64,000 nt of DNA from an uncultured Myxococcales bacterium (GTDB lineage: Bacteria; Myxococcota; Myxococcia; Myxococcales; UBA5297): the NCBI GenBank assembly GCA_937910285.1, contig CALEOC010000027.1, forward strand, positions 6,725 through 70,724. The letters run 5' to 3'. Below, one piece after another: positions 11,660 through 61,725 of the stretch. The notes under the pieces are model-generated. The model did no database searches. It saw nothing but the letters and a program-made list of their open reading frames with translations, and had not been told where the DNA came from. Numbering within the stretch: position 1 is the first letter of the stretch; each line of letters starts with the position of its first letter. Position numbers and translations under genes: made by a program.

Positions 11660-13018
11660 ATGGCCAAACCCAAGACCCTCTACTCCTGCCAGTCCTGCGG
11701 CCACAAAGAGCCCAAGTGGCTCGGGCGCTGTCCCGACTGCGGCGGCTGGAACACGCTGGTCGAAGAGGTGGAGGAGCGCGAACAGAAGCGCGGCTGGGGC
11801 ACCCTTTCGACCGGCGGCAAGCCGGTGCGCCTGCTCGATGTCACCGCCGATCGCGAGGACCGGATGCTCACCGCCATCGGCGAGCTCGACCGGGTCTTGG
11901 GCGGCGGGGTGGTCGCCGGCGGCCTGGTGCTGCTCGGGGGCGATCCGGGCATCGGCAAGAGCACGCTGCTGCTCGCCGCGCTCGCCAAGCTCTCGCACCA
12001 CGGCTCGGCGCTCTACGTCACCGGCGAGGAGTCGCTGCGCCAGACGCGCATGCGCGCCGAACGCATGGGAATCGACGCCGAGAACCTGCACCTGATGGCC
12101 GAGACCGACGCCGAGAAGGTCATCGCCGCGGCCGGCAAGCTCAAGCCCTGCGCGCTGGCGGTCGACTCCATCCAGACGCTCTTCTTGCCCGAGCTCGGCA
12201 GCGCCCCGGGCACCATCAGCCAGGTGCGCGAGTGCTCCGGGCGCCTGATGGCCTATGCCAAGCGCACCGAGACCCCCACCTTCATCGTCGGCCACGTCAC
12301 CAAGGACGGCGCCATCGCCGGGCCGCGGGTCCTCGAGCACATGGTCGACACCGTCCTCTACTTCGAGGGCGACCGCGGGCATCCCTACCGCGTGCTGCGC
12401 GCCCACAAGAACCGCTTCGGCTCGACCAACGAGATCGGGGTCTTCGAGATGAAGTCGAGCGGGCTGAGCGAGGTGCTCGACCCCTCGGCGCTCTTCCTGG
12501 CCGAGCGGCCCGTCGATGCGTCGGGCTCGGTGGTCACCGCCTCGGTCTCGGGGACCCGGCCGCTGCTCGTCGAATTGCAGGCGCTCGTCGCGCCGACCGG
12601 CTACGGCACCGCGCGGCGCACGACGATGGGGGTCGATCACAACCGGGTCGCGCTGCTCGCCGCGGTGCTCGAGAAGAAGGAGGGCGTCGACCTGGCCGGC
12701 TGCGACCTGTTCGTCAACGTCGCCGGCGGCATCGAGCTCTCCGAGCCGAGCGCCGACCTCGCCATCCTCGCCGCGCTCGTCTCCAGCGTGCGCGACCGGC
12801 CGCTCGACGCGAAGACGATGGTCTTCGGCGAGGTCGGCCTCGCCGGCGAGGTGCGCGCGGTGGCGCAGGTCGAGCCGCGGCTTGTCGAGGCGGCCAAGAT
12901 GGGCTTCAAGCGCGCGGTGCTGCCGGCGGCCAGCGTGCGCAACCTCGAGAGCCCGCCGCTCGCGCTGGTGCCGGTCTCGACGATCGGCGAGGCGCTGCAG
13001 GCGCTGTTCGAGCGGTAG
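11660..13018 (+). CDS. radA: DNA repair protein RadA/Sms
   Basis: N-terminal zinc ribbon (CQSCGHKEPKWLGRCPDCGGWNT), Walker A (GGDPGIGKST), the KNRFG motif and a Lon-like C-terminal domain. Confidence 0.95.
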   Translation: MAKPKTLYSCQSCGHKEPKWLGRCPDCGGWNTLVEEVEEREQKRGWGTLSTGGKPVRLLDVTADREDRMLTAIGELDRVLGGGVVAGGLVLLGGDPGIGKSTLLLAALAKLSHHGSALYVTGEESLRQTRMRAERMGIDAENLHLMAETDAEKVIAAAGKLKPCALAVDSIQTLFLPELGSAPGTISQVRECSGRLMAYAKRTETPTFIVGHVTKDGAIAGPRVLEHMVDTVLYFEGDRGHPYRVLRAHKNRFGSTNEIGVFEMKSSGLSEVLDPSALFLAERPVDASGSVVTASVSGTRPLLVELQALVAPTGYGTARRTTMGVDHNRVALLAAVLEKKEGVDLAGCDLFVNVAGGIELSEPSADLAILAALVSSVRDRPLDAKTMVFGEVGLAGEVRAVAQVEPRLVEAAKMGFKRAVLPAASVRNLESPPLALVPVSTIGEALQALFER

Positions 13019-13022
13019 TCGG
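12904..13022. repeat. 119-bp direct repeat, copy 1 (native 3' end of radA)
   Basis: Matches 16084-16202 except for two adjacent bases (GAGAGCCCG versus GAGAATCCG). Confidence 0.9.
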
Positions 13023-13110
13023 ATTTGCGAGGAGCCTCGGGCGGGCTTGCCGACGCAGAGCGACGGCTTGCCTGTCGCGTCGGTTTCACGCCAGACACGG
13101 TGTCGAAGGG

Positions 13111-13147
13111 GTGACCGGCGGGAGGCAGAGAGCCCTCCGCCGGTCAC
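13111..13147. terminator. strong hairpin between convergent radA and the lipoprotein gene (possible terminator, no U tract)
   Basis: GTGACCGGCGGGAGG-CAGAGAGC-CCTCCGCCGGTCAC gives a stem of about 14 bp with one bulge. No T-rich tail follows. Confidence 0.3.
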
Positions 13148-13268
13148 TCGTATCGTGACCGCGCTTTGCGCAAGACCTGCTGGCAAGACGCCCCAGGCTC
13201 TGGGAGTGCCCACAGAAGGCGCCGCCCCCGCGCCCGCCCATGGCCCCCCCAGCGCAATCGCCAGCGGA

Positions 13269-14297
13269 TCAGTTGCAGGACACCCCTTGGAGCTGGCAGG
13301 TGCCGCTGATGCACGCGGCCGGAGGCATGCAGCTTGGCCCCGAGAGGTCGTTGCACGTTGCGCCATCGGCAGCCGCCGCAACACACGTGCCGCTCGCCTG
13401 GCCTTGGACCATTCGGCAAAACCCGCTGGCCCGGCAGAGCGTGACGCCTCCGGCAATGAAGCCGCAGGGCTGTCCAGCATCGGCGAAGGAGACTGCCTGG
13501 CAGGTGCCTCCGTTGCACAAGAGCCCTGCGGTCGGGTCACAGTCGCTGCTCTGATTACAAGCGCCCCCGGCCCCCGAGGCGGCACTGCACGTACCATTGC
13601 GGCAAGCCAGCGGTGACTTGCACGGCAAGCTGACGCCGCAGGGCGCCCCCGCAGCCCCAGGGCTGACGCACATTCCGTTGGACGCGCACTTGAGCCCGTC
13701 GGCACAGCGCTCGCCATTGGCGCACGAAGAGCCGGCAGGAACCGTCGCCGCGCAAGTCCCGCAGGCCGAGGTCATCCGGCAGGCCCCGCTCTGGCACTGC
13801 TCGTCCGCCCCGCAGACGCTGCCGTTGGGGAGGGTTCCCGCGGGAAAGTCGCAGGCGGCCGGAAGGTTGTCGCTGAAGAGGTCCTGACACGAGAGCCCGG
13901 CAAAGCTCGCGGCGCAGGTGCTCATCTGCTCGGCGAGGAAAGTCACGCCCTTCGCGGAGAAGGTCTCCTCGCAGCCAATCCGATTGCGCGCGCGGCAGGT
14001 GGCTACGTCGCCGTAGTTGATCTGCGCGCTAAATCCCGCGCACCGCTGAAGCAGGTTGCAAACGGCTCCGATGTGGGCATCACAGGCCTGGGCGGGAGAG
14101 ACCGGAGTGACGCAATTCTCGCAGGCACCCCATTCCGAGCCGTCCGAGTTGCAGGTCCGCTCGCCGGTGCCGCCGGTATCGCATTCGCAGGCCTCGGTCG
14201 AACCGGCGGTGCAGACGCTGCCGTCCTTGCTCGAATCCTCACCCGACCCACAACCCCCCAGGAACACCAGCACAAGCACCTTCACCGCTGATTTCAT
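13269..14297 (-). CDS. secreted cysteine-rich repeat lipoprotein
   Basis: It has a lipobox (LVFLGGC). I count 41 Cys in 342 aa, with a reiterated G..C....C..G..C..G.C pattern in the C-terminal half, like myxobacterial/Dickkopf-type Cys-rich repeats. Confidence 0.8.
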   Translation of the reverse strand: MKSAVKVLVLVFLGGCGSGEDSSKDGSVCTAGSTEACECDTGGTGERTCNSDGSEWGACENCVTPVSPAQACDAHIGAVCNLLQRCAGFSAQINYGDVATCRARNRIGCEETFSAKGVTFLAEQMSTCAASFAGLSCQDLFSDNLPAACDFPAGTLPNGSVCGADEQCQSGACRMTSACGTCAATVPAGSSCANGERCADGLKCASNGMCVSPGAAGAPCGVSLPCKSPLACRNGTCSAASGAGGACNQSSDCDPTAGLLCNGGTCQAVSFADAGQPCGFIAGGVTLCRASGFCRMVQGQASGTCVAAAADGATCNDLSGPSCMPPAACISGTCQLQGVSCN

Positions 14298-14758
14298 TGT
14301 GATCCCTCCGTTTGGGAATTAGCAGCACAGAAACAGAAGGCATGCCACGGGCAACAAGCGCCCCGGTACCCTCCGGCCGACGAGTATGGCCGATGGGGCG
14401 GGGCTGCGTCGAGGAGCCAAGCGCTCGCCCTGGCTTACCCAGACTCTCGGCGTCGGCCCCTGCCTGGCCAAGGACCGGGGCTCAGCGGCGGTTCTCCACA
14501 AATCCCGCGACTGCAGCATTGCGGTTAACGCGCGACAGCGCTTCCGTGCTGCGCAGCTTCACCTCGCGAAGGCGGCGCCGCGGCCTGAGCTCGCAAAGAA
14601 GGCGAGCGTGTCTTGCCGCCGGGTGCGGCGCTCGACGGTGCCCGTCATGCCGACCGGGCTCTTGCATCGAGGCAGCCGGGCGCCACCGAACCGGTCCGTT
14701 CGGTATCCCCGGGGCGTCGCTCCGACGCTCGGCACGTCAGACTGCCGAGCCACCCGCG

Positions 14759-15337
14759 CTATTGGAGCCAACTCCACCAGCGCAGGCTGGCGTCCTTGAT
14801 CTTTTCGGACACGTGCTTTCTGGCGAGGCGCTCGAAAGGACGGTATGCGGGCATCCGCTCGTGCACCTCGTAGCTGCCGTGCCATCGCAGGCGGATCACA
14901 TAGCGGCGCTCACCGAGGCGAACGCGCCACCAGTACCTGTGGTTGTTCTTCTTGCGCGTGACCGAGGCGAAGTCGCGCCAGGGAACAAAGGCGCCCCACC
15001 AGTGCCGCTGACCTGGCGTGTCGAGCCGCCGGCGCCTCCCGAAGACCGAGAGCAACATCACGCCCTCGTCGCTGAGGACGAGCCGCTTGGGGATCCAGGC
15101 CGCGAAGACGCCGACCACCGCCACTCCCACGACGGTCCCGAGTGAGATTCGCGCTTTGCCGGTGATCATGAGCGCGAGCGGCAGAAAGGCACCCACGCCG
15201 AATAGAAAGAGCCCTGCCAGCAGCGCGCCGACGTTGGGGGCGACCGAGCCGGCATCGTCTCGCAAGAAGAAGCTCCACAGTGACTGAGCGGAGCTCGGCT
15301 GCTGGGAAAGACGTGTCTTCCTTGACGGACGGGGCAT
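14759..15337 (-). CDS. hypothetical membrane protein
   Basis: I start at the internal ATG (complement 15335-15337, MPRPSRKTRLSQ...). Two clear hydrophobic helices are present (VGALLAGLFLFGVGAFLPLALMI, LGTVVGVAVVGVFAAWI), followed by a basic Trp-rich tail. No family was recognised. Confidence 0.55.
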   Translation of the reverse strand: MPRPSRKTRLSQQPSSAQSLWSFFLRDDAGSVAPNVGALLAGLFLFGVGAFLPLALMITGKARISLGTVVGVAVVGVFAAWIPKRLVLSDEGVMLLSVFGRRRRLDTPGQRHWWGAFVPWRDFASVTRKKNNHRYWWRVRLGERRYVIRLRWHGSYEVHERMPAYRPFERLARKHVSEKIKDASLRWWSWLQ

Positions 15338-15599
15338 CTGGTTCCTGGTTCCTGCCGCGGTTGGCCTGGCGCATTTCTGGGCGTCTGAGTGCAGCAAAAG
15401 AGGGGCAAGTGGCCAGTGCGACAAGGAAAAAGCAGGCGCTCCAGCGACCCTGGCGCCGAGTATGACCGTCTGTGTGGGCCTGCGTCGAGACGCTCGACAC
15501 CAGCCTGTGCGCCCGCCGCGGTGTCGGCGTGCAATTGAGGGCCCCAGGAGATCCTCGCCGCAGGCCAGGCAGCCAACCCGCAGGGAGCTCTCGGCGAGC

Positions 15600-16198
15600 A
15601 GCCGCACGTCAGGGACGCATGCCGCCGGGCGGCGGCGCTTGCCTCTTCCGAACACCTGGCGAAACTCTCCATCCCGGTGGGCGCCTGCGGCAACCTGCCG
15701 CCCGAGCTCGCGGAGAAGGTACTCGCCGACGGCGACGCCGACTTCGTGGCGTTCGGCCGGCCGCTCACCGCCGACCCGGAGATCGGCCGCAAGCTGCGCG
15801 AAGGGCGCCCCGCCGACGTGCGCCCCAGCACCCGCTGCAACCAGCTATGCACCGGCAACGCCTTCTTCGGGAAGGCGCTCGGCTGCGCGGTCAACCCGGA
15901 GGTCGGGTTCGAGGGGACGCGGAAGATCGAACGGGCCGACAAGCCCAAGCAGATCGCGATCATCGGCGCCGGACCGGCCGGCCTCGAGGCCGCTCGGGTG
16001 GCCGCGCTGCGCGGGCACACGGTCGAGGTCTTCGACAAGAACCGCTACCTCGGCGGCGTGCTCTGGCCGGCGGCCACCCCGGTCTTCAAGCGCGCGGTGC
16101 TGCCGGCGGCCAGCGTGCGCAACCTCGAGAATCCGCCGCTCGCGCTGGTGCCGGTCTCGACGATCGGCGAGGCGCTGCAGGCGCTGTTCGAGCGGTAG
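15600..16198 (+). pseudogene. chimeric remnant: middle of a FadH/OYE-type NADH:flavin oxidoreductase fused in frame to a copy of the last 37 codons of radA
   Basis: ...KLSIPVGACGNLPPELAEKVLADGDADFVAFGRPLTADPE... is the end of an OYE TIM barrel. ...QIAIIGAGPAGLEAARVAALRGHTVEVFDKNRYLGG... is a dinucleotide-binding fold. The text then switches abruptly to FKRAVLPAASVRNLENPPLALVPVSTIGEALQALFER*, which is the RadA C-terminus. No N-terminus is present. Confidence 0.8.
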
Positions 16199-16202
16199 TC
16201 GC
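16084..16202. repeat. 119-bp direct repeat, copy 2 (ectopic radA 3' end)
   Basis: See 12904-13022. Confidence 0.9.
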
Positions 16203-16415
16203 TCGAGAGCCTGTCGGCAACTCTACGGCGTATCGCGCGAGGCGGGCGCGCGGTCGTCTCGCCGGCCTGCGTGCGCGGATGAAGCGAGGTTGAGGTCGAC
16301 TTTTCGACGGGGCTTCACGCCGCTCTCGGCCTCGTCGCTCATGTCGACCGCGCGGCCACCCGCGCTGCCCTCCCCGCCCGCTCCGCGTGGCGCGCGAGGG
16401 CTCGTCCACCTCATT

Positions 16416-17447
16416 TCAGCGAGCTCGTGCCCCGGTGCGCTCGGCCCGCGCGAGGATCAGCTCTCCGGCGATGCTGATGGCGATCTCCGCCGGCGTCTCC
16501 GCCTCGATCGCCGTTCCGATGGGGGTGTGAATCCGCGCGATCGCCTCCTGAGGGATGCCCGCCTCGCGGAGCCTGGCGGCGATGGAGGCGCTCTTCGACC
16601 TGCTGCCGATGACCCCGAGGTAGGCGACCTCGGTGCGCAGCACCTGCTGCTGCACCGAAAAGTCGTGGGCGTGCCCCCGAGTCATCACCACCACGTAGTC
16701 GGCGGCGGTCAGGGTGATCGTCTCGGCGATCTTCGCAAAATCGCCCAGCAGCACCGTCTCGGCTCCGGGGAACCGCTCCCGCGAGGCGAACTCCTCGCGG
16801 TCGTCGATGACGACGCAGCGAAACCCGACGTGGGCGAGCACCGGCACCAGCTCCTGGGCGATATGGCCGCCGCCGAAGATCACGACCCGGCCCGCGCGCA
16901 CCAACGGCTCGGAGTAGTAGCGCCTTCCGGCGATCTCCATCTGCACCGCACGGCTCGCCCAGAGCGGGGCGAGCGGCTCCGCGGGCACGGCCAGGCCCGA
17001 GAGGCCTTGGCTGCGGCTGAAGAGGCCCATGTTCCAGGCCGAGGCGTCGGTCAGGTCGGTGACCAGCCAGGCGTCCTCGTCGCGACTGAACCCGGCCACG
17101 ATGGCCTCGACCCGCGCGAGGTTGGCGCTCTCGTTTGCAGCGACGAACTGGAAGTGGACCTTCACCTCGCCGCCGCAGATCATCCCCAGGTCTTCCACCT
17201 CGTTGCGGGCGAGGACGAAACCCTCCAGGCGAGAGCGCTTTTCATCGAGGATCTTCGCGGCGAGCCCCTCGGCGCGGTGCTCGACGGCGCCGCCTCCGAT
17301 GGTTCCGCGCAGCCTTCCCTGCCGGGTCACCAGCATCCTCGCCCCCGCCTCCCGGGGAATCGAGCCGGTGCTGGCGACGACGGTGACGAGCACCGCGTCT
17401 TCGCCGCTCTCCAAGCGCTCCTTCAGCAGGCCAAACATCGCTCTCAT
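16416..17447 (-). CDS. XdhC/CoxI-family molybdoenzyme maturation protein
   Basis: I start at MRAMFGLLKERL (ATG complement 17445-17447). The N-terminal XdhC domain reads VLVTVVASTGSIPREAGARMLV...GTIGGG. The C-terminal Rossmann part reads RVVIFGGGHIAQELVPVL...VVMTRGHAHD. Confidence 0.8.
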   Translation of the reverse strand: MRAMFGLLKERLESGEDAVLVTVVASTGSIPREAGARMLVTRQGRLRGTIGGGAVEHRAEGLAAKILDEKRSRLEGFVLARNEVEDLGMICGGEVKVHFQFVAANESANLARVEAIVAGFSRDEDAWLVTDLTDASAWNMGLFSRSQGLSGLAVPAEPLAPLWASRAVQMEIAGRRYYSEPLVRAGRVVIFGGGHIAQELVPVLAHVGFRCVVIDDREEFASRERFPGAETVLLGDFAKIAETITLTAADYVVVMTRGHAHDFSVQQQVLRTEVAYLGVIGSRSKSASIAARLREAGIPQEAIARIHTPIGTAIEAETPAEIAISIAGELILARAERTGARAR

Positions 17448-17812
17448 CGGACGAGACTCCCGGGTCGTTGGGGGAAAGGGAGGATAGCTCGAACGCGCGC
17501 GGGTCGAGTTGCTCAGAGGATGGAAGGTCGGTGCGGGACCGCCGTCGGTCTTCACCTTGGCTATCAGGTGTCGCTCGCTCTCAAAGGCTCGTCGAAGGCT
17601 TTGGGATAGGCGGACTGGGCCAGGGTTGCTCGGACGGGACTCAAAGCGACTCTGCCGCTCCCTCCTTGCCCCCAAGCCTTGCGGCTCCTGTCCGCAATAA
17701 GGGCTTCGCCGCCTTGCAACACCGGCCAAGCCAAAGCGCGCGCCCTGGTGACTGCCGCCGGCTCAATGGACCTATTTTCGCCTGACGCAGACCCGAACCA
17801 AGGAGAGATGCC

Positions 17813-18440
17813 ATGAGCGGCTTCGAGCACCTGTTGGCCCCGGGGAAGATCGGCAGCCTCGAGCTCCCCAACCGCATCCTGCTGAGCCCGATGGGAACCG
17901 AGATGTGCACCCCCGACGGCAAGTCGACCCCGGCTCCCCCCTCTGCTGCCCGACAGCGTCGCCGGGCTCGACTCGAAGCAGGTGGTCGACGTGCTCGACT
18001 TCCACCTCGGGGCGCCGCTCGGCAAGCGGGTGGTGGTCGCCGGCGGCGGTCTCTCGGGTTGCGACGCCGCGCTCGAGATAGCGGAGAAGGGCCACGAGGT
18101 CACCCTTGTCGAGATGCTCGACGAGATCGCCCGCGACATGCTCATCACCAACCGGATCACGCTGCTGCGCCAGCTTGCCGAGCGCGGGGTCAAGGTGCTC
18201 ACCGGGCGGACCATCACCGCCATCGAGGAGGGGGCGGTGGTCGCCCAAGGCCCCAACGGCCGCGAGGAGATCGCGGCCGACAGCGTAGTCGCGGCCTTCG
18301 GCGTCCTCCCGGCCACCGAGCTGACCGAGGCCCTGAGGCAGCGCTACGGCGCGAGGGTCCACCCGGTCGGCGACTGCGTCAAACCGCGCAAGGTGGGCGA
18401 CGCGGTCAACGACGCCTACGCGCTCGCGCTGACCTTGTGA
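17813..18440 (+). pseudogene. internally deleted FadH/OYE-type flavoenzyme gene (N-terminal ~40 codons joined out of frame to C-terminal ~165 codons)
   Basis: MSGFEHLLAPGKIGSLELPNRILLSPMGTEM... is a typical OYE N-terminus. About 120 nt later a different frame reads ...LLPDSVAGLDSKQVVDVLDFHLGAPLGKRVVVAGGGLSGCDAALEIAEKGHEVTLVE...VHPVGDC..., which is the C-terminal NAD(P)-binding part of 2,4-dienoyl-CoA-reductase-like enzymes. The barrel and FAD domain are missing here. Confidence 0.75.
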
Positions 18441-18936
18441 GGTCGTGCGGCGGGCCGGCCGGGTCGGGCGACCGTTCGCTCGCCCGGCCGGCTTGGCCGA
18501 CACTGGTCGAATCCAAGAGGTACGAGCCGAAGAAGGTACCGCCGTCGTCTCGACGACTCGAGCGCTCCTCGCTCGAGGTTGGCCCGTCCGCGGGGATTTC
18601 GGGCATCCCGACCTCCGCGAGGCATCGCTCGATCTGCCGGAGGAGGGGACAGTCTTCTGCCTTCACGGCTCGGATGTGCAGCGGTGCAGTCTTGCCTCAC
18701 CCGAGTTGGCCTCCGCGGCGATCCCGCCGGAGGCGATCCGTCGGCGCGATCGCGGCAATCGCGAGGGCTGCAGCCGCCAGCGGCCGCACTTCGCGAACCC
18801 GGCCGCCGGCTATCGAGCTGTCACCAACGCCCACGGGGCCCACGCGGCGAGGCTCTCCGCCGGCCCGGCGGTCACATATCGACCGCACCTGCGATTCGCC
18901 CGAGCCTGAGCCGGTGGCGCACAGGGACGGCCCGGC

Positions 18937-19334
18937 CACTCGTCGAGTGCGACAAGCGCGGTGCAGGCGCCCGCCTTCGACTCATCGAGTGGTAGGAAGG
19001 CGTGGTAGGCGCCGGTTCTCGACTCATCGAGTGGCAGGAAGGGGTGGTAGACGCCGGTTTTCGACTCATCGAGTGCTAAGAAGGCCTGGCAGGTGCCGGT
19101 CTTCGACTCATCGAGTGCCGAAAACGTCGCGCAGCCGAAGGTTTTTGACTCATCGAGTGGCGAAGAGGCTGCGGAGGCAGCGAATTTTGACTCATCGAGT
19201 GGCGAAGAGGCGGGTTGGGCAGCGAATTTCGACTCATCGAGTGGCGAAGAGGCGGGTTGGGCACCGACCCTTCACTCGATGAGTCGTGTCGGAGCTCGGA
19301 GCTCCGACACGCCTCGACGAAGCTGGAGCTTCGT
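18937..19334. repeat. 42-bp tandem array (8 units) plus inverted core copy and two palindromes
   Basis: The core GACTCATCGAGTG occurs at 18979, 19021, 19063, 19105, 19147, 19189 and 19231, with a degenerate copy at 18937. A reverse-complement core lies at 19273-19285. Palindromes lie at 19286-19310 and 19317-19334. Confidence 0.9.
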
Positions 19335-19516
19335 TCGTCAGACGAAGCCGGAGCTTCATCCTCCATCCCTTCGCGTACCTGGCTCCAAGTTCGCCCACGG
19401 CAGCCTCTCGCGCGATAGGCCGGAGGACCTGCTGTAACGACACCATCCTCGCGGTGGACGCAAACACGAGCATCCGGCAACGATTTGACGGTGAACAGGA
19501 CTTCGAGGGTTTGCAG

Positions 19517-19723
19517 CTAACGCTGCCAGGGGTTGACAACCTCCAGCCCCGGATAGTCGAAATCCCCGACGTTGCGAGTCGCCAGGCGCAGCTCGTGATG
19601 CACGGCCGTGGCAGCGAGCAGGCTGTCGATGCTTGGCATCGGGCGCCCTGCCTTTGCGAGCAGCCGGCCCCAGCAGTCGGCGACTGCCCTGTCCACCGGC
19701 AGCCGCTCGGCCTCTTGCTTCAT
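19517..19723 (-). pseudogene. 5'-truncated PIN-domain (VapC-like) toxin gene remnant
   Basis: The C-terminal half of a PIN domain is clear (LPVDRAVADCWGRLLAKAGRPMPSIDSLLAATAVHHELRLATRNVGDFDYPGLEVVNPW). No N-terminal acidic (DTN-type) segment is present and no antitoxin ORF lies upstream. Confidence 0.55.
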
Positions 19724-19838
19724 GAGCGGTCGGTTGCCCGCCAACCCCGATGCGCGCCCGCCCCAGCGGTGTGGAAAGCCGCGCCCTCGCGGCGCCGCTC
19801 GTGCAAGACTGGACAGTCGAATCCTCTCGGAGGCTGGC

Positions 19839-20636
19839 ATGGGGTCGTGGCTTCGCGTGCTCATTCGTGCGCCCGTCGCTCTCGCCTTTACGCTCGCGGT
19901 GCATTGGTGCGCGCGGCTCCGCGGCGTCCTCGTCTACTGGCGCTGGTGGAGGCGTCGGCCGACCGACCTCATCTCGCTCTGGGCGCGGGGGCTCGCCTGG
20001 ATCATGGGCGTCCGCGTGCGCTGCCGCAGCCGTCCCGAGGGCCCGATGGGCGATCTCATCGTCGCCAACCACATGGGCTTTCTCGACGTCCCGGCGCTGG
20101 GCTCTCTCTTCCCCGCCGTCTTCGTCATCAAAATGGAGATGCGCCGGGTCCTCTACTTCGGCTCCGCGCTCGCCGCGCAAGGGCACGTCTTCGTCGACCG
20201 CGCGAGCAGCGAGTCGAGGCGCTCGGCTCGCGAGGGCGTGCGCGGCGTCCTCGAGGACGGCGATCGCCTCGTCGTCTTCCCCGAAGGAGGCGCGAGCCCC
20301 GAGGCGCTGCGTCCTCCCTTCAAGCCGTTCTGCTTCCACGAAGCCGCACGGCAGGGAAAGCTCGTGCAGGCCTGCGTCATCGACTACCTGCCCGACCGCA
20401 AGGCGCTGCGCTGGGACACCGGCCGCGGGATGCTGCCGCAGCTCGTCGAGCTGTTGGGCCGCAGGCGCACCGAGATCAGCCTCGAGCTGCTGCCCGCCGA
20501 ACGCATCGCGGACCCGGACTCGGCCGCCCAGCGCTACCACGACTTGATAGAGGGCCGGCTCCTCGAATACGACCGCCTCGCCTCGCGCCCCACAGAAGCC
20601 GCAAAGGACGACCATGCAACCCAACAAGCCGCGTAA
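19839..20636 (+). CDS. lysophospholipid/glycerolipid acyltransferase (PlsC/LPLAT family)
   Basis: I start at MGSWLRVLIR (ATG 19839). It has a hydrophobic N-terminus, the HX4D motif (ANHMGFLD) and FPEGG. Confidence 0.8.
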   Translation: MGSWLRVLIRAPVALAFTLAVHWCARLRGVLVYWRWWRRRPTDLISLWARGLAWIMGVRVRCRSRPEGPMGDLIVANHMGFLDVPALGSLFPAVFVIKMEMRRVLYFGSALAAQGHVFVDRASSESRRSAREGVRGVLEDGDRLVVFPEGGASPEALRPPFKPFCFHEAARQGKLVQACVIDYLPDRKALRWDTGRGMLPQLVELLGRRRTEISLELLPAERIADPDSAAQRYHDLIEGRLLEYDRLASRPTEAAKDDHATQQAA

Positions 20637-37340: not shown

Positions 37341-37400
37341 GAGGCCGACGACGCCCCACATCCGGCCTGCCTCCGACTGACCTTCGCCGCCTACGGTCCT

Positions 37401-37900
37401 CGTGCTCCCGAGCGCTGAAATCGTCGCCGACTCACGATCCGCGGTGCTCCCGAGCGCCGAAATCGTCGCCGACTCACGGTCCGTGGTGCTCCCGAGCAGT
37501 CGAGATCGTCGCCGCCGACGATCTCTGGTTCGACCGGAGCTCGAGGATCGTCGCGGCCGACGATCTCTGGTTCGACCGGAGCTCGAGCGAACGTGGCTGC
37601 CGACGCTTTTGGTTCCACCGGAGCTCGGGGATCGTCGCCGCCGACGTTTTCGGTTCGACCGGAGTTCAGCCATCGTCGCGGCCGACGATCTCTGGTTCGA
37701 CCGGAGCTCGAGGATCGTCGCCGCTGACGTTTTCGGTTCAACCGGAGCTCGGCGATCGTCGCGGCCGACGATCTCTGGTTCAACCGGAGCTCGGGGATCG
37801 TCGCGGCCGACGTTTTCGGTTCAACCGGAGCTCGGCGATCGTCGCGGCCGACGTTTTCAGTTCGACCGGAGCTTGATGAGTCGCTGACGTTCGGACTCGC
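37401..37900. repeat. 41/42-bp tandem array, about 12 units in three subtypes
   Basis: Units start at 37401, 37443, 37485, 37527, 37569, 37611, 37652, 37694, 37735, 37777, 37818 and 37859. The core is GGTTCGACCGGAGCTCG. Several units carry the dyad GATCGTCG-N4-CGACGATC (for example 37504-37523 and 37546-37565). Confidence 0.9.
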
Positions 37901-44061: not shown

Positions 44062-44187
44062 GCCCTCGGCATCCATCCGAACGCCGTCCCCATCAACCCG
44101 ATAGCCGTCCGGACCAGTCCGAAAGCCGTCCGCATCACCCCGAAGGCCGTCCGCATCGGTCCGAAAGCCGTCCGCATCGGTCCAGCT
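44062..44187. repeat. 21-bp tandem array (5 clear units plus a degenerate one)
   Basis: GCCGTCC recurs at 44083, 44104, 44125, 44146 and 44167, exactly 21 bp apart. The consensus unit is CCGAAAGCCGTCCGCATCGGT. Confidence 0.85.
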
Positions 44188-47212: not shown

Positions 47213-47450
47213 CCCTTCTCGACGACGGCGCCCTCGCGACGGCCGACACAAAGGTCGGCCCTCCGGACCGAAGACGCCGCGAACCCTTCTCGACGACCGC
47301 GCCCGCGACGGCCGACACGAAGGTCGGCCCTCCGGACCGAAGACGCCGCGAACCCTTCTCGACGACCGCGCCCTCGACGGCCGACACGAAGGTCGGCCCT
47401 CCGGACCGAGCCCCCACGAACCCTTCTCGACGACCCCGCCCGCTGATGGC
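47213..47450. repeat. approximately 69-bp tandem array (about 3.5 units), each unit with a perfect hairpin
   Basis: CCCTTCTCGACGAC occurs at 47213, 47284, 47353 and 47421. The hairpin GGCCGAC-AC(A/G)AAG-GTCGGCC occurs at 47241-47260, 47310-47329 and 47379-47398. Confidence 0.85.
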
Positions 47451-47550
47451 CGGCCCTCCGGCAGCCGATGCGGCGCGCCGGGGCGAGCCCCGAACGAGCG
47501 GCAGATTTGCCTGCAAAATTCGCTCGTTGTGCATTCCGGGAAGCGAGCGG

Positions 47551-61481: not shown

Positions 61482-61725
61482 CCGGATCTCGGAACGTCAT
61501 TTCTGCGCGCGGAAAAGCCGTTCCGAGGACGGGAATGGCCTTTCCGCCCTGCAGATCGGCGTTCCGAGGACGGGAATGGCCTTCCTGACCCGCAGATCGG
61601 CGTTCCGAGGACGGGAATGGCCTTCCTGACCCCGCAGATCGGCGTTCCGAGGACGGGAACGGCCTTCCTGACCCTGCGGATCGGCGTTCCGAGGACCGAG
61701 CTGGCCTGCCTGGCCTGGCGAGAGA
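61482..61725. repeat. 41/42-bp tandem array (5 units) preceded by a partial inverted core
   Basis: The core CGTTCCGAGGACGGGAA(T/C)GGCC occurs at 61519, 61560, 61601, 61643 and 61685. CCGGATCTCGGAACG at 61482-61496 is a partial reverse complement of the core. Confidence 0.85.

Follow-up and report, generated by a model that had tools for sequence, protein, structure and literature searches.

A 42 bp tandem array in a Myxococcota genome as one copy of a dispersed BrickBuilt-like cassette among helically phased arrays

The 42 bp tandem array reported here is well supported as one copy of a dispersed, BrickBuilt-like cassette that belongs to a lineage-specific class of helically phased arrays. 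The array lies in a stretch of 64 000 nucleotides, referred to below as the window, which corresponds to C27:6725-70724 of G000, a metagenome-assembled Myxococcota genome of 7.67 Mb with roughly 70% GC in 303 contigs. As to its role, we consider the chances about even that the conserved cores would serve as helically phased docking sites for a sequence-specific protein.

The features discussed below are collected in Table 1. The original prediction described seven exact copies of the 13 nt core GACTCATCGAGTG at strict 42 bp intervals, preceded by a degenerate copy and followed by an inverted one, and a pattern search recovered each of these elements. Every interval between the seven exact cores is 42 bp, and all nine core copies (seven exact, one degenerate and one inverted) fall in one 42 bp register; TRF likewise assigned the array a period of 42. 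When up to two mismatches are allowed the core has 11 matches in the window, compared with an expectation of 2.1 ± 1.4, and none of 100 shuffles reached 11. The core is an interrupted palindrome in which CACTC-like half-sites flank a 3 nt centre, and the first core and the inverted core together form an inverted-repeat end of 12–13 nt. The 29 nt linkers are related to one another, with 61% identity within a locus, which bears out the view that this is a degenerating tandem repeat and not a repeat-spacer array. A CRISPR array was considered and rejected on the grounds that the conserved part is only about 13–20 nt, that the linkers are interrelated and that the real CRISPR repeat of this genome differs. 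That genuine repeat, GCTTCAATGGAGCCCCTTCCGAATAGAAGGGGAAAC, is 36 nt long and occurs in about 125 copies.

Table 1. Location of the window array, its flanks and related features. Entries with a C prefix are given as contig and contig position in G000.
Feature	Location	Strand	Basis or remarks
Broken FadH-type flavoenzyme gene, 3′ fragment, 152 aa, Pyr_redox_2	17982..18440	+	Profile positions 142-247 of 291
Unique non-coding DNA from gene fragment to array	18441..18936	.	Single-copy 14-mers, without Pfam match
42 bp tandem array: one degenerate unit, seven exact-core units, inverted-core terminal unit	18937..19285	+	Sequence, TRF
Degenerate core copy CACTCGTCGAGTG	18937		2 mismatches; in 42 bp register with the other cores
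Exact cores GACTCATCGAGTG, n = 7	Starts 18979, 19021, 19063, 19105, 19147, 19189, 19231 (span 18979..19243)	+	Pattern search
In-phase inverted core CACTCGATGAGTC, cassette 3′ tail	19273..19285	-	Exact reverse complement
Perfect palindrome GTGTCGGAGCTC-G-GAGCTCCGACAC	19286..19310	.	GGAGCT-N-AGCTCC-type variant of the second family
Palindrome ACGAAGCT-GG-AGCTTCGT; with one more base, GACGAAGCT-GG-AGCTTCGT	19317-19334 (19316..19334)	.	14-mers at most 17 times in the genome
Third, degenerate copy GACGAAGCCGGAGCTTC with family tail ATCCTCCATCC	19341..19372	+	14-mers at most 25 times in the genome
PIN-domain gene remnant	19517..19864	-	Weak match, E 7.5e-4, C-terminal part of profile only
Further arrays of the class	37384-37873, 44062-44183, 61519-61696, 65163-65243		
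Family copy	C136:54938-55315		
Family copy	C248:64230-64649		
Family copy	C141:36266-36307		
Family copy, diverged	C141:29864-30198	opposite	
Family arrays that break the assembly, n = 2	C180 end + C88 start; C5 start + C186 start		
Array-linked protein genes, examples	C274:13994-14746 (array 15115-15572); C7:1642-2403; C44:38010-38783; C27:39-773		The last lies just upstream of the window

Only one reading frame is open through the whole array. Its third-position GC, ~57% by a hand count of one unit, is far below the 85–97% found in real genes, which indicates that the array is non-coding. The placement originally given, in non-coding DNA between converging gene remnants, was upheld, the remnants being a fragment of a pyridine-nucleotide-disulphide oxidoreductase (Pyr_redox_2) and a PIN fragment. 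Coding repeats, for which 42 bp would be 14 codons, were also rejected for the class at large since 43% of the 41–44 bp arrays have periods of 41, 43 or 44, in addition to the low third-position GC. An assembly artefact is ruled out by the presence of an identical array in independent assemblies of other samples. We do note that in a UBA assembly of the same population (GCA_002408385.1; DHSB01000010.1, L020 1506-1694) the 3′ end of the array coincides exactly with a stretch of N and with low-quality runs of G/C.

The 3′ ends of the Pyr_redox_2 fragment and of the PIN remnant, called as a 68-residue ORF at 19517-19723, converge on the array, and neither a sigma-70-like promoter nor an intrinsic terminator was predicted in the region 18300-19900. 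Comparison with G001, a genome of the same genus with ~85% nucleotide identity in shared genes, places the array at a synteny breakpoint. The order in G001 is radA, a block of acyltransferase, GH3, HAD and ABC genes, further on an uninterrupted FadH-type gene, and then a block referred to here as block C. In G000, radA is followed by pieces of the FadH-type gene split by an XdhC gene, the array, the PIN remnant, the acyltransferase block and block C. No counterpart of window positions 18445-19798 was found in the G001 contig examined. The rearranged segment specific to G000 spans 13018-19799; within it the pieces of the split gene lie at ~15665-16100 and 17812-18440 with the XdhC gene (16416-17438, minus strand) between them, and the 3′ end of radA is duplicated at ~16069-16198. 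The FadH-type gene of G001, which is apparently uninterrupted, is located on the opposite flank of the acyltransferase-ABC block.

The two perfect palindromes reported directly downstream of the array are present as described, but they are not its ending. Together with a third, degenerate copy they make up three variant copies (19286-19372) of a second dispersed family, with the consensus GGAGCT-GG-AGCTCC...TCCATC. The sequence GGCGGAGCTGGAGCTCCGCC followed by ..TCCATC is among the most abundant 14-mer families in G000, with about 100 copies. The trailing palindromes belong to a separate family, copies of which have built up in this gap, outside the array. Copies of this REP-like family, GGCGGAGCT-GG-AGCTCCGCC followed by ..TCCATC, were noted in the window at 19286-19372, 43890 and 55452 and at about 100 sites genome-wide, either singly or spaced about 42 or 83 bp apart.

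The array had been described as a structure of a single locus. It is instead one of about seven family copies within a class of about 240 arrays, as became apparent when the core was searched for in the whole genome and its relatives: the same core, in the same 42 bp phase, is found at about seven loci in G000, all of them intergenic, and at none in G001. Each family locus begins with a degenerate unit. An inverted-core last unit preceded by GGGC.CCGACCCTT is found at C27, C136 and C248, with a degenerate form at C141b and C88, and the GGGC.CCGACCCTTCACTCGATGAGT tail recurs at C136 and C248 and, degenerately, at C141b and C88. Homologous tails lie at C136:55315 and C248:64607. The homology among the C27, C136 and C248 loci ends at the cassette borders, beyond which the flanks are unrelated. 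Since the first and last units are shared and the homology stops there, the inverted terminal copy is an inherited cassette end that was copied between loci. These features show that the cassette is copied as a whole. The in-phase inverted core pointed out in the original prediction is therefore real, but it is not specific to the window locus, being common to C136 and C248.

The genes that neighbour the family, named by eye, differ from locus to locus and include GreA-like and SlyD-like genes, an acyl-CoA dehydrogenase and RNase III, a BMP-family lipoprotein and an endonuclease/exonuclease/phosphatase protein, and a radical-SAM and a DUF99-like protein. The array is located downstream of a gene at each locus, and at the C180/C88 locus it is antisense to both neighbours. 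No target-site duplication is visible at the borders of the C27, C136 and C248 copies, no transposase was seen near the family loci and an autonomous partner element was not found. Empty sites were sought in G001, the contigs of which stop at or near the orthologous intergenic regions. Arrays of this family also join C5 to C186 and C180 to C88. At C136:54159-59400 the cassette lies between a singleton 237-residue protein and a DUF1828 protein, followed by a protein of ~860 residues with a DUF262-like DGQQR motif (assigned by eye); this region may be a defence or mobile island. The 237-residue protein has a helix-turn-helix-like C-terminus and its gene ends 66 bp before the array. It was considered as a binder of the core and rejected, as it is a singleton with no significant Pfam match and no homologue at the other arrays.

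Between loci, the 13 nt core retains 92% identity and the 29 nt linker 53% (47 units), where composition alone would give 30%. Of the 38 intervals between units, 34 measure 42 bp, three 41 bp and one 43 bp. Taken together these values support the earlier claim that the phasing is tighter than slippage would predict. Columns C18 T19 C20 T22 G24 A25 G26 T27 are invariant in the 45 distinct units from all loci; the half-sites ACTC/GAGT never vary in these units, with no compensatory changes, and the 3 nt centre of the core is variable (ATC, GTC, GTT, AAC or AGC). This combination of invariant half-sites lacking compensation and a variable centre fits sequence read-out better than a selected hairpin. 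What is conserved is sequence plus distance, not fold. RNAalifold retained only a 4 bp stem in the core, and the folding energy per unit is −14.0, compared with −12.7 ± 3.3 in shuffles. An extended hairpin in each unit (a 14-pair model drawn by eye) was rejected, with 71.4% of the cells paired compared with 71.2% in column shuffles, and pair counting in the same model gave no covariation beyond the 4 bp stem. The whole array folds better than shuffles on either strand, with z values of −4.6 and, for the opposite strand, −5.5. The best matches in Rfam were far below the gathering scores.

The cassette family is part of a larger class. TRF analysis of the whole genome gave sharp period peaks at 21 bp (93 arrays) and at 41–44 bp (125 arrays, of which 17, 71, 25 and 12 have periods of 41, 42, 43 and 44 bp, respectively, covering 31 kb in all) and a smaller peak at 82–87 bp; the class, defined by periods of 21, 42 or 84 bp, comprises about 240 arrays. 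These periods, to within 1 bp, correspond to two, four and eight turns of B-DNA. By sequence, the 147 arrays with periods of 41–44 or 82–87 bp group into about 102 families, and 73 of these have a single member. Nearly all of the 41–44 bp arrays are intergenic (118 of 125, 94%), and among those for which both neighbours are known convergent gaps hold 34 of 86, compared with a background of 17% (p = 1e-6). Perfect stems of at least 6 bp are found in 36% of the 42 bp units and in 10% of shuffled units; the 21 bp units have no such excess over shuffles. Within families, the orientation of the arrays relative to the flanking genes is inconsistent. Arrays of 21, 42 or 84 bp contain at least 72 of the 606 contig ends, which means that the number and length of the arrays are underestimated. 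Besides the array under study, five other members of the class lie in the window; their periods are 42, 41, 21, 41 and 22 bp and their cores are unrelated (e.g. ATCGTCG-CGGC-CGACGAT). A 69 bp array is present at 47213-47452. A search of the literature on 42 bp or helically phased tandem arrays and on myxobacterial repeats found no description of such a class.

Arrays of 41, 43, 44 and 21 bp are present in G001 at similar density, and some of their families are common to G000. The ACTCATCGAGT family is absent from G001 and from 39 other relatives, one of which, G022, has only an unrelated 21 bp array. No arrays of the class were seen in the 140, 140 and 91 kb sampled from three other genera of the family (G003, G004 and G006). 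The array class is lineage-specific.

Some of the sister arrays are coupled to proteins. Uncharacterized families of about 210–280 residues almost always adjoin arrays of 21, 42 or 84 bp, each copy having its own array sequence. Nine of the 14 members of the merged family 0/5 are found beside an array (p = 1e-8), and hhalign relates this family to family 3 with a probability of 90%. Among the arrays of 21, 42 or 84 bp, 35 of 265 have a gene of these families within 700 bp, compared with none of 260 repeats of other periods. No convincing Pfam match was obtained for the array-linked proteins. An AlphaFold model (pLDDT 86) takes the form of an elongated, all-helical bundle that carries a basic tail, and no significant neighbour was found for it in the PDB. 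The profile of the helical ~240-residue family matched 1,301 metagenomic clusters among 1.8 billion representatives. An orthologue of 81% identity has a 44 bp × 12.8 array 369 bp upstream, with only GGACCACCCACCAACTC in common with the G000 array, and a homologue of 34% identity has 22 bp repeats about 330 bp upstream. In all, an array lies near 22 of 30 loci in 13 Myxococcota genomes, mostly with periods of 21–22 bp or multiples of these, and its sequence differs each time. A tblastn search found none of the array-linked families, or remnants of them, near the seven loci of the window family; the window-family cassette is an orphan.

In our view, the element is best pictured as a species-specific minisatellite cassette with defined polar ends that most likely acts at the DNA level. 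A sequence-specific protein, probably a dimer, would recognize the CACTC-N3-GAGTG-type palindrome. The 29 nt linker, drifting in sequence and fixed in length, would keep successive sites four turns apart and facing the same side of the helix, so that binding could be cooperative. Arrays would grow, shrink and homogenize locally through unequal recombination or slippage; whole cassettes would be copied to new loci and would persist where they are harmless, as in 3′–3′ gaps and at rearrangement junctions. We infer that a protein binds the cores. Four observations point to such a docking-site mechanism, namely core conservation, a fixed helical spacing, the lack of an RNA signal and the protein coupling of sister arrays; candidate outcomes are propagation of the element, a roadblock or insulation, and nucleoid organization. 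The dimensions of the core argue against docking: half-sites of 4–5 bp whose centres are separated by only 8 bp are unusual for helix-turn-helix dimers. The conservation of the core could also reflect the amplification needs of the element itself and not a host function. In a wider proposal the arrays would supply the DNA side of a protein–DNA system not previously described, with sites at 21n bp and each family having its own fast-diversifying protein, of which the helical ~240-residue family would be an example. We regard this proposal as possible though doubtful; orphan multi-locus cassettes such as the window family might then be trans-acting landing pads on the chromosome.

BrickBuilt of Porphyromonas gingivalis is the closest described element to the window cassette. 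It is a minisatellite/MITE with a 23 bp unit, leader and tail units and small inverted-repeat ends; its copies, from several to about two dozen in each genome, all lie between genes and are confined to the species (Klein et al., 2015; PMC4596501). The window family resembles it in starting with a degenerate unit, ending with an inverted-core unit and lacking unique spacers, and in being multicopy (seven loci), intergenic and absent from the sister species. It differs from BrickBuilt in its 42 bp unit with a strongly conserved 13 nt core in a drifting linker and in its setting within about 100 unrelated families that share the 21/42/84 bp geometry, and no consensus promoter was found. Unlike a MITE, the window family has neither a visible target-site duplication nor a cognate autonomous transposon. 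The family also resembles MIRU/VNTR minisatellites, which are dispersed intergenic tandem repeats of 40–100 bp in a few families. MIRUs, however, lie within operons and carry short coupled ORFs, whereas the G000 arrays favour convergent gaps and have palindromic cores and helically quantized periods.

The main rival to docking sites is a neutral or purely selfish minisatellite, which we consider rather unlikely. Slippage or unequal crossing-over would have been seeded at a small palindrome, the 42 bp length would simply be inherited and no protein would read the array; the core would appear to be conserved only because units without it cease to amplify. The rapid turnover of the arrays is in keeping with this explanation, the window family being absent from G001 and the intergenic regions differing wholesale between genomes. 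So are the permissive sites that they occupy (convergent gaps, a synteny breakpoint and gene debris), the fact that most arrays are unique in sequence, with 73 singleton families, and the 72 of 606 contig ends within arrays, as unstable repeats would give. Inheritance fails, however, to explain why the periods of about 100 unrelated families deviate by no more than ±1 from 21, 42 or 84 bp. Linkers that have drifted to 53% identity still keep their exact length, and only the 21, 42 and 84 bp arrays are coupled to particular protein families across genera, neither of which is expected of a selfish minisatellite. An element of the REP/BIME type mobilized by a RAYT (Y1) transposase, with a head-to-tail REP hairpin as its unit, is less probable still, and we judged membership by the definitions in PMC2817692 and PMC3733652. 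As with those elements, the window family is extragenic and multicopy, has a palindromic core and lies at the 3′ ends of genes; REP/BIME elements are sometimes tandem and REPs are known protein-binding sites (PMC2817692, PMC3733652). Head-to-tail REP arrays and REPs with stems of only 5 bp have been described (PMC3733652), and G000 does encode a RAYT-like ORF (C89:25166-25843, motif YCLMSTHPHVLL) and has a second, weak Y1_Tnp match at C248:748-885. The window family, however, has no imperfect palindrome of 20–40 nt, only the 4 bp core stem being kept with folding and pairing no better than in shuffles, and no GT[AG]G or CGTC tag, as GT[AG]G occurs at a fixed position in only 14 of 47 units. 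A repeat-flanked RAYT is also lacking, since neither Y1 gene (25.3 and 23 bits, both weak) is flanked by the window family or by any other high-copy repeat. Furthermore, the units are in direct and not alternating orientation, and about 100 families would require far more than two RAYTs.

It is very improbable that the array acts as RNA, as a transcribed row of hairpins serving as a 3′-UTR stabilizer, a terminator or a protein sponge. Its position downstream of a gene at each locus and the favourable folding of the whole array (z = −4.6) would suit such a role, but the opposite strand folds at least equally well (z = −5.5), and there is no Rfam match, no covariation and no terminator-like or promoter-like site. 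The inconsistent orientation within families, including the array antisense to both of its neighbours at C180/C88, also argues against an RNA element, and periods set by the helical repeat have no rationale in RNA. The least probable explanation is a centromere like sopC, or an iteron origin, belonging to a plasmid, prophage or integrated element. The sopC locus of plasmid F consists of tandem units of ~43 bp, each with an inverted-repeat SopB site, a geometry equal to that of the window array, in which short inverted-repeat sites, one per unit of ~42 bp, are likewise four helical turns apart. The window family, in contrast, is chromosomal, at seven loci beside housekeeping genes (greA-, slyD-, rnc- and acyl-CoA dehydrogenase-like, assigned by eye). 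ParA, ParB and Rep were not found among the neighbours scanned at the window locus, no partition genes accompany the family, and neither the 72,556 plasmids nor the 50,697 phage records searched gave a match. As an analogy, sopC offers the best mechanistic counterpart for the phased cooperative binding that we propose.

REP, BIME, MIRU and BrickBuilt elements are known as dispersed bacterial repeats, and G000 provides an unusually clean case: about 100 unrelated families follow one geometric rule, with units of two, four or eight helical turns, conserved cores and drifting linkers. Together with the pairing of a subset of the arrays with helical proteins across genera, this makes the phased-docking hypothesis testable through gene–array pairs that can be cloned. 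The arrays also shape both the quality of the assembly, through the contig ends that they contain, and the rearrangement of the genome, one of them being at a synteny breakpoint. If the wider proposal of a protein–DNA system is true and such arrays also prove to be common in other phyla, they would represent an overlooked layer of bacterial chromosome organization or regulation.

Two comparisons bear, weakly, on the free variation in copy number by which the original prediction would be refuted, each of them between near-identical strains, so that agreement tells little about constraint; a more distant strain with the array assembled was not found. In the ERZ724025 strain, which comes from another sample and is nearly the same strain as that studied here, the array and the 4 kb around it are identical and the copy number is equal. 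The C136 locus in the UOOH assembly, also from a near-identical strain, has 99.83% identity and again an equal copy number. Further afield, a scan of 185,579 species gave only a handful of matches to the core, which are possibly due to chance. A core 11–12-mer was found in arrays of 21, 40, 42 or 43 bp in a Polyangium MAG, a Pseudomonadota MAG, Filimonas zeae, Gemmatimonadaceae, Bacteroidetes and some metagenome contigs. Homology of the core across phyla was considered and rejected, as only the 11–12-mer is common, nothing beyond the core is shared and, by a rough estimate, a few chance matches are expected. The foreign ACTCATCGAGT arrays are probably chance matches, yet arrays built in this way do exist in other phyla. 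Those with a ACTCATCGAGT core and periods of 40–43 bp are L001 (Filimonas zeae), L005/L007 (the Pseudomonadota MAG), L006 (the Polyangium MAG), L092/L094 and L095/L098. The Filimonas array likewise ends in a partly inverted copy.
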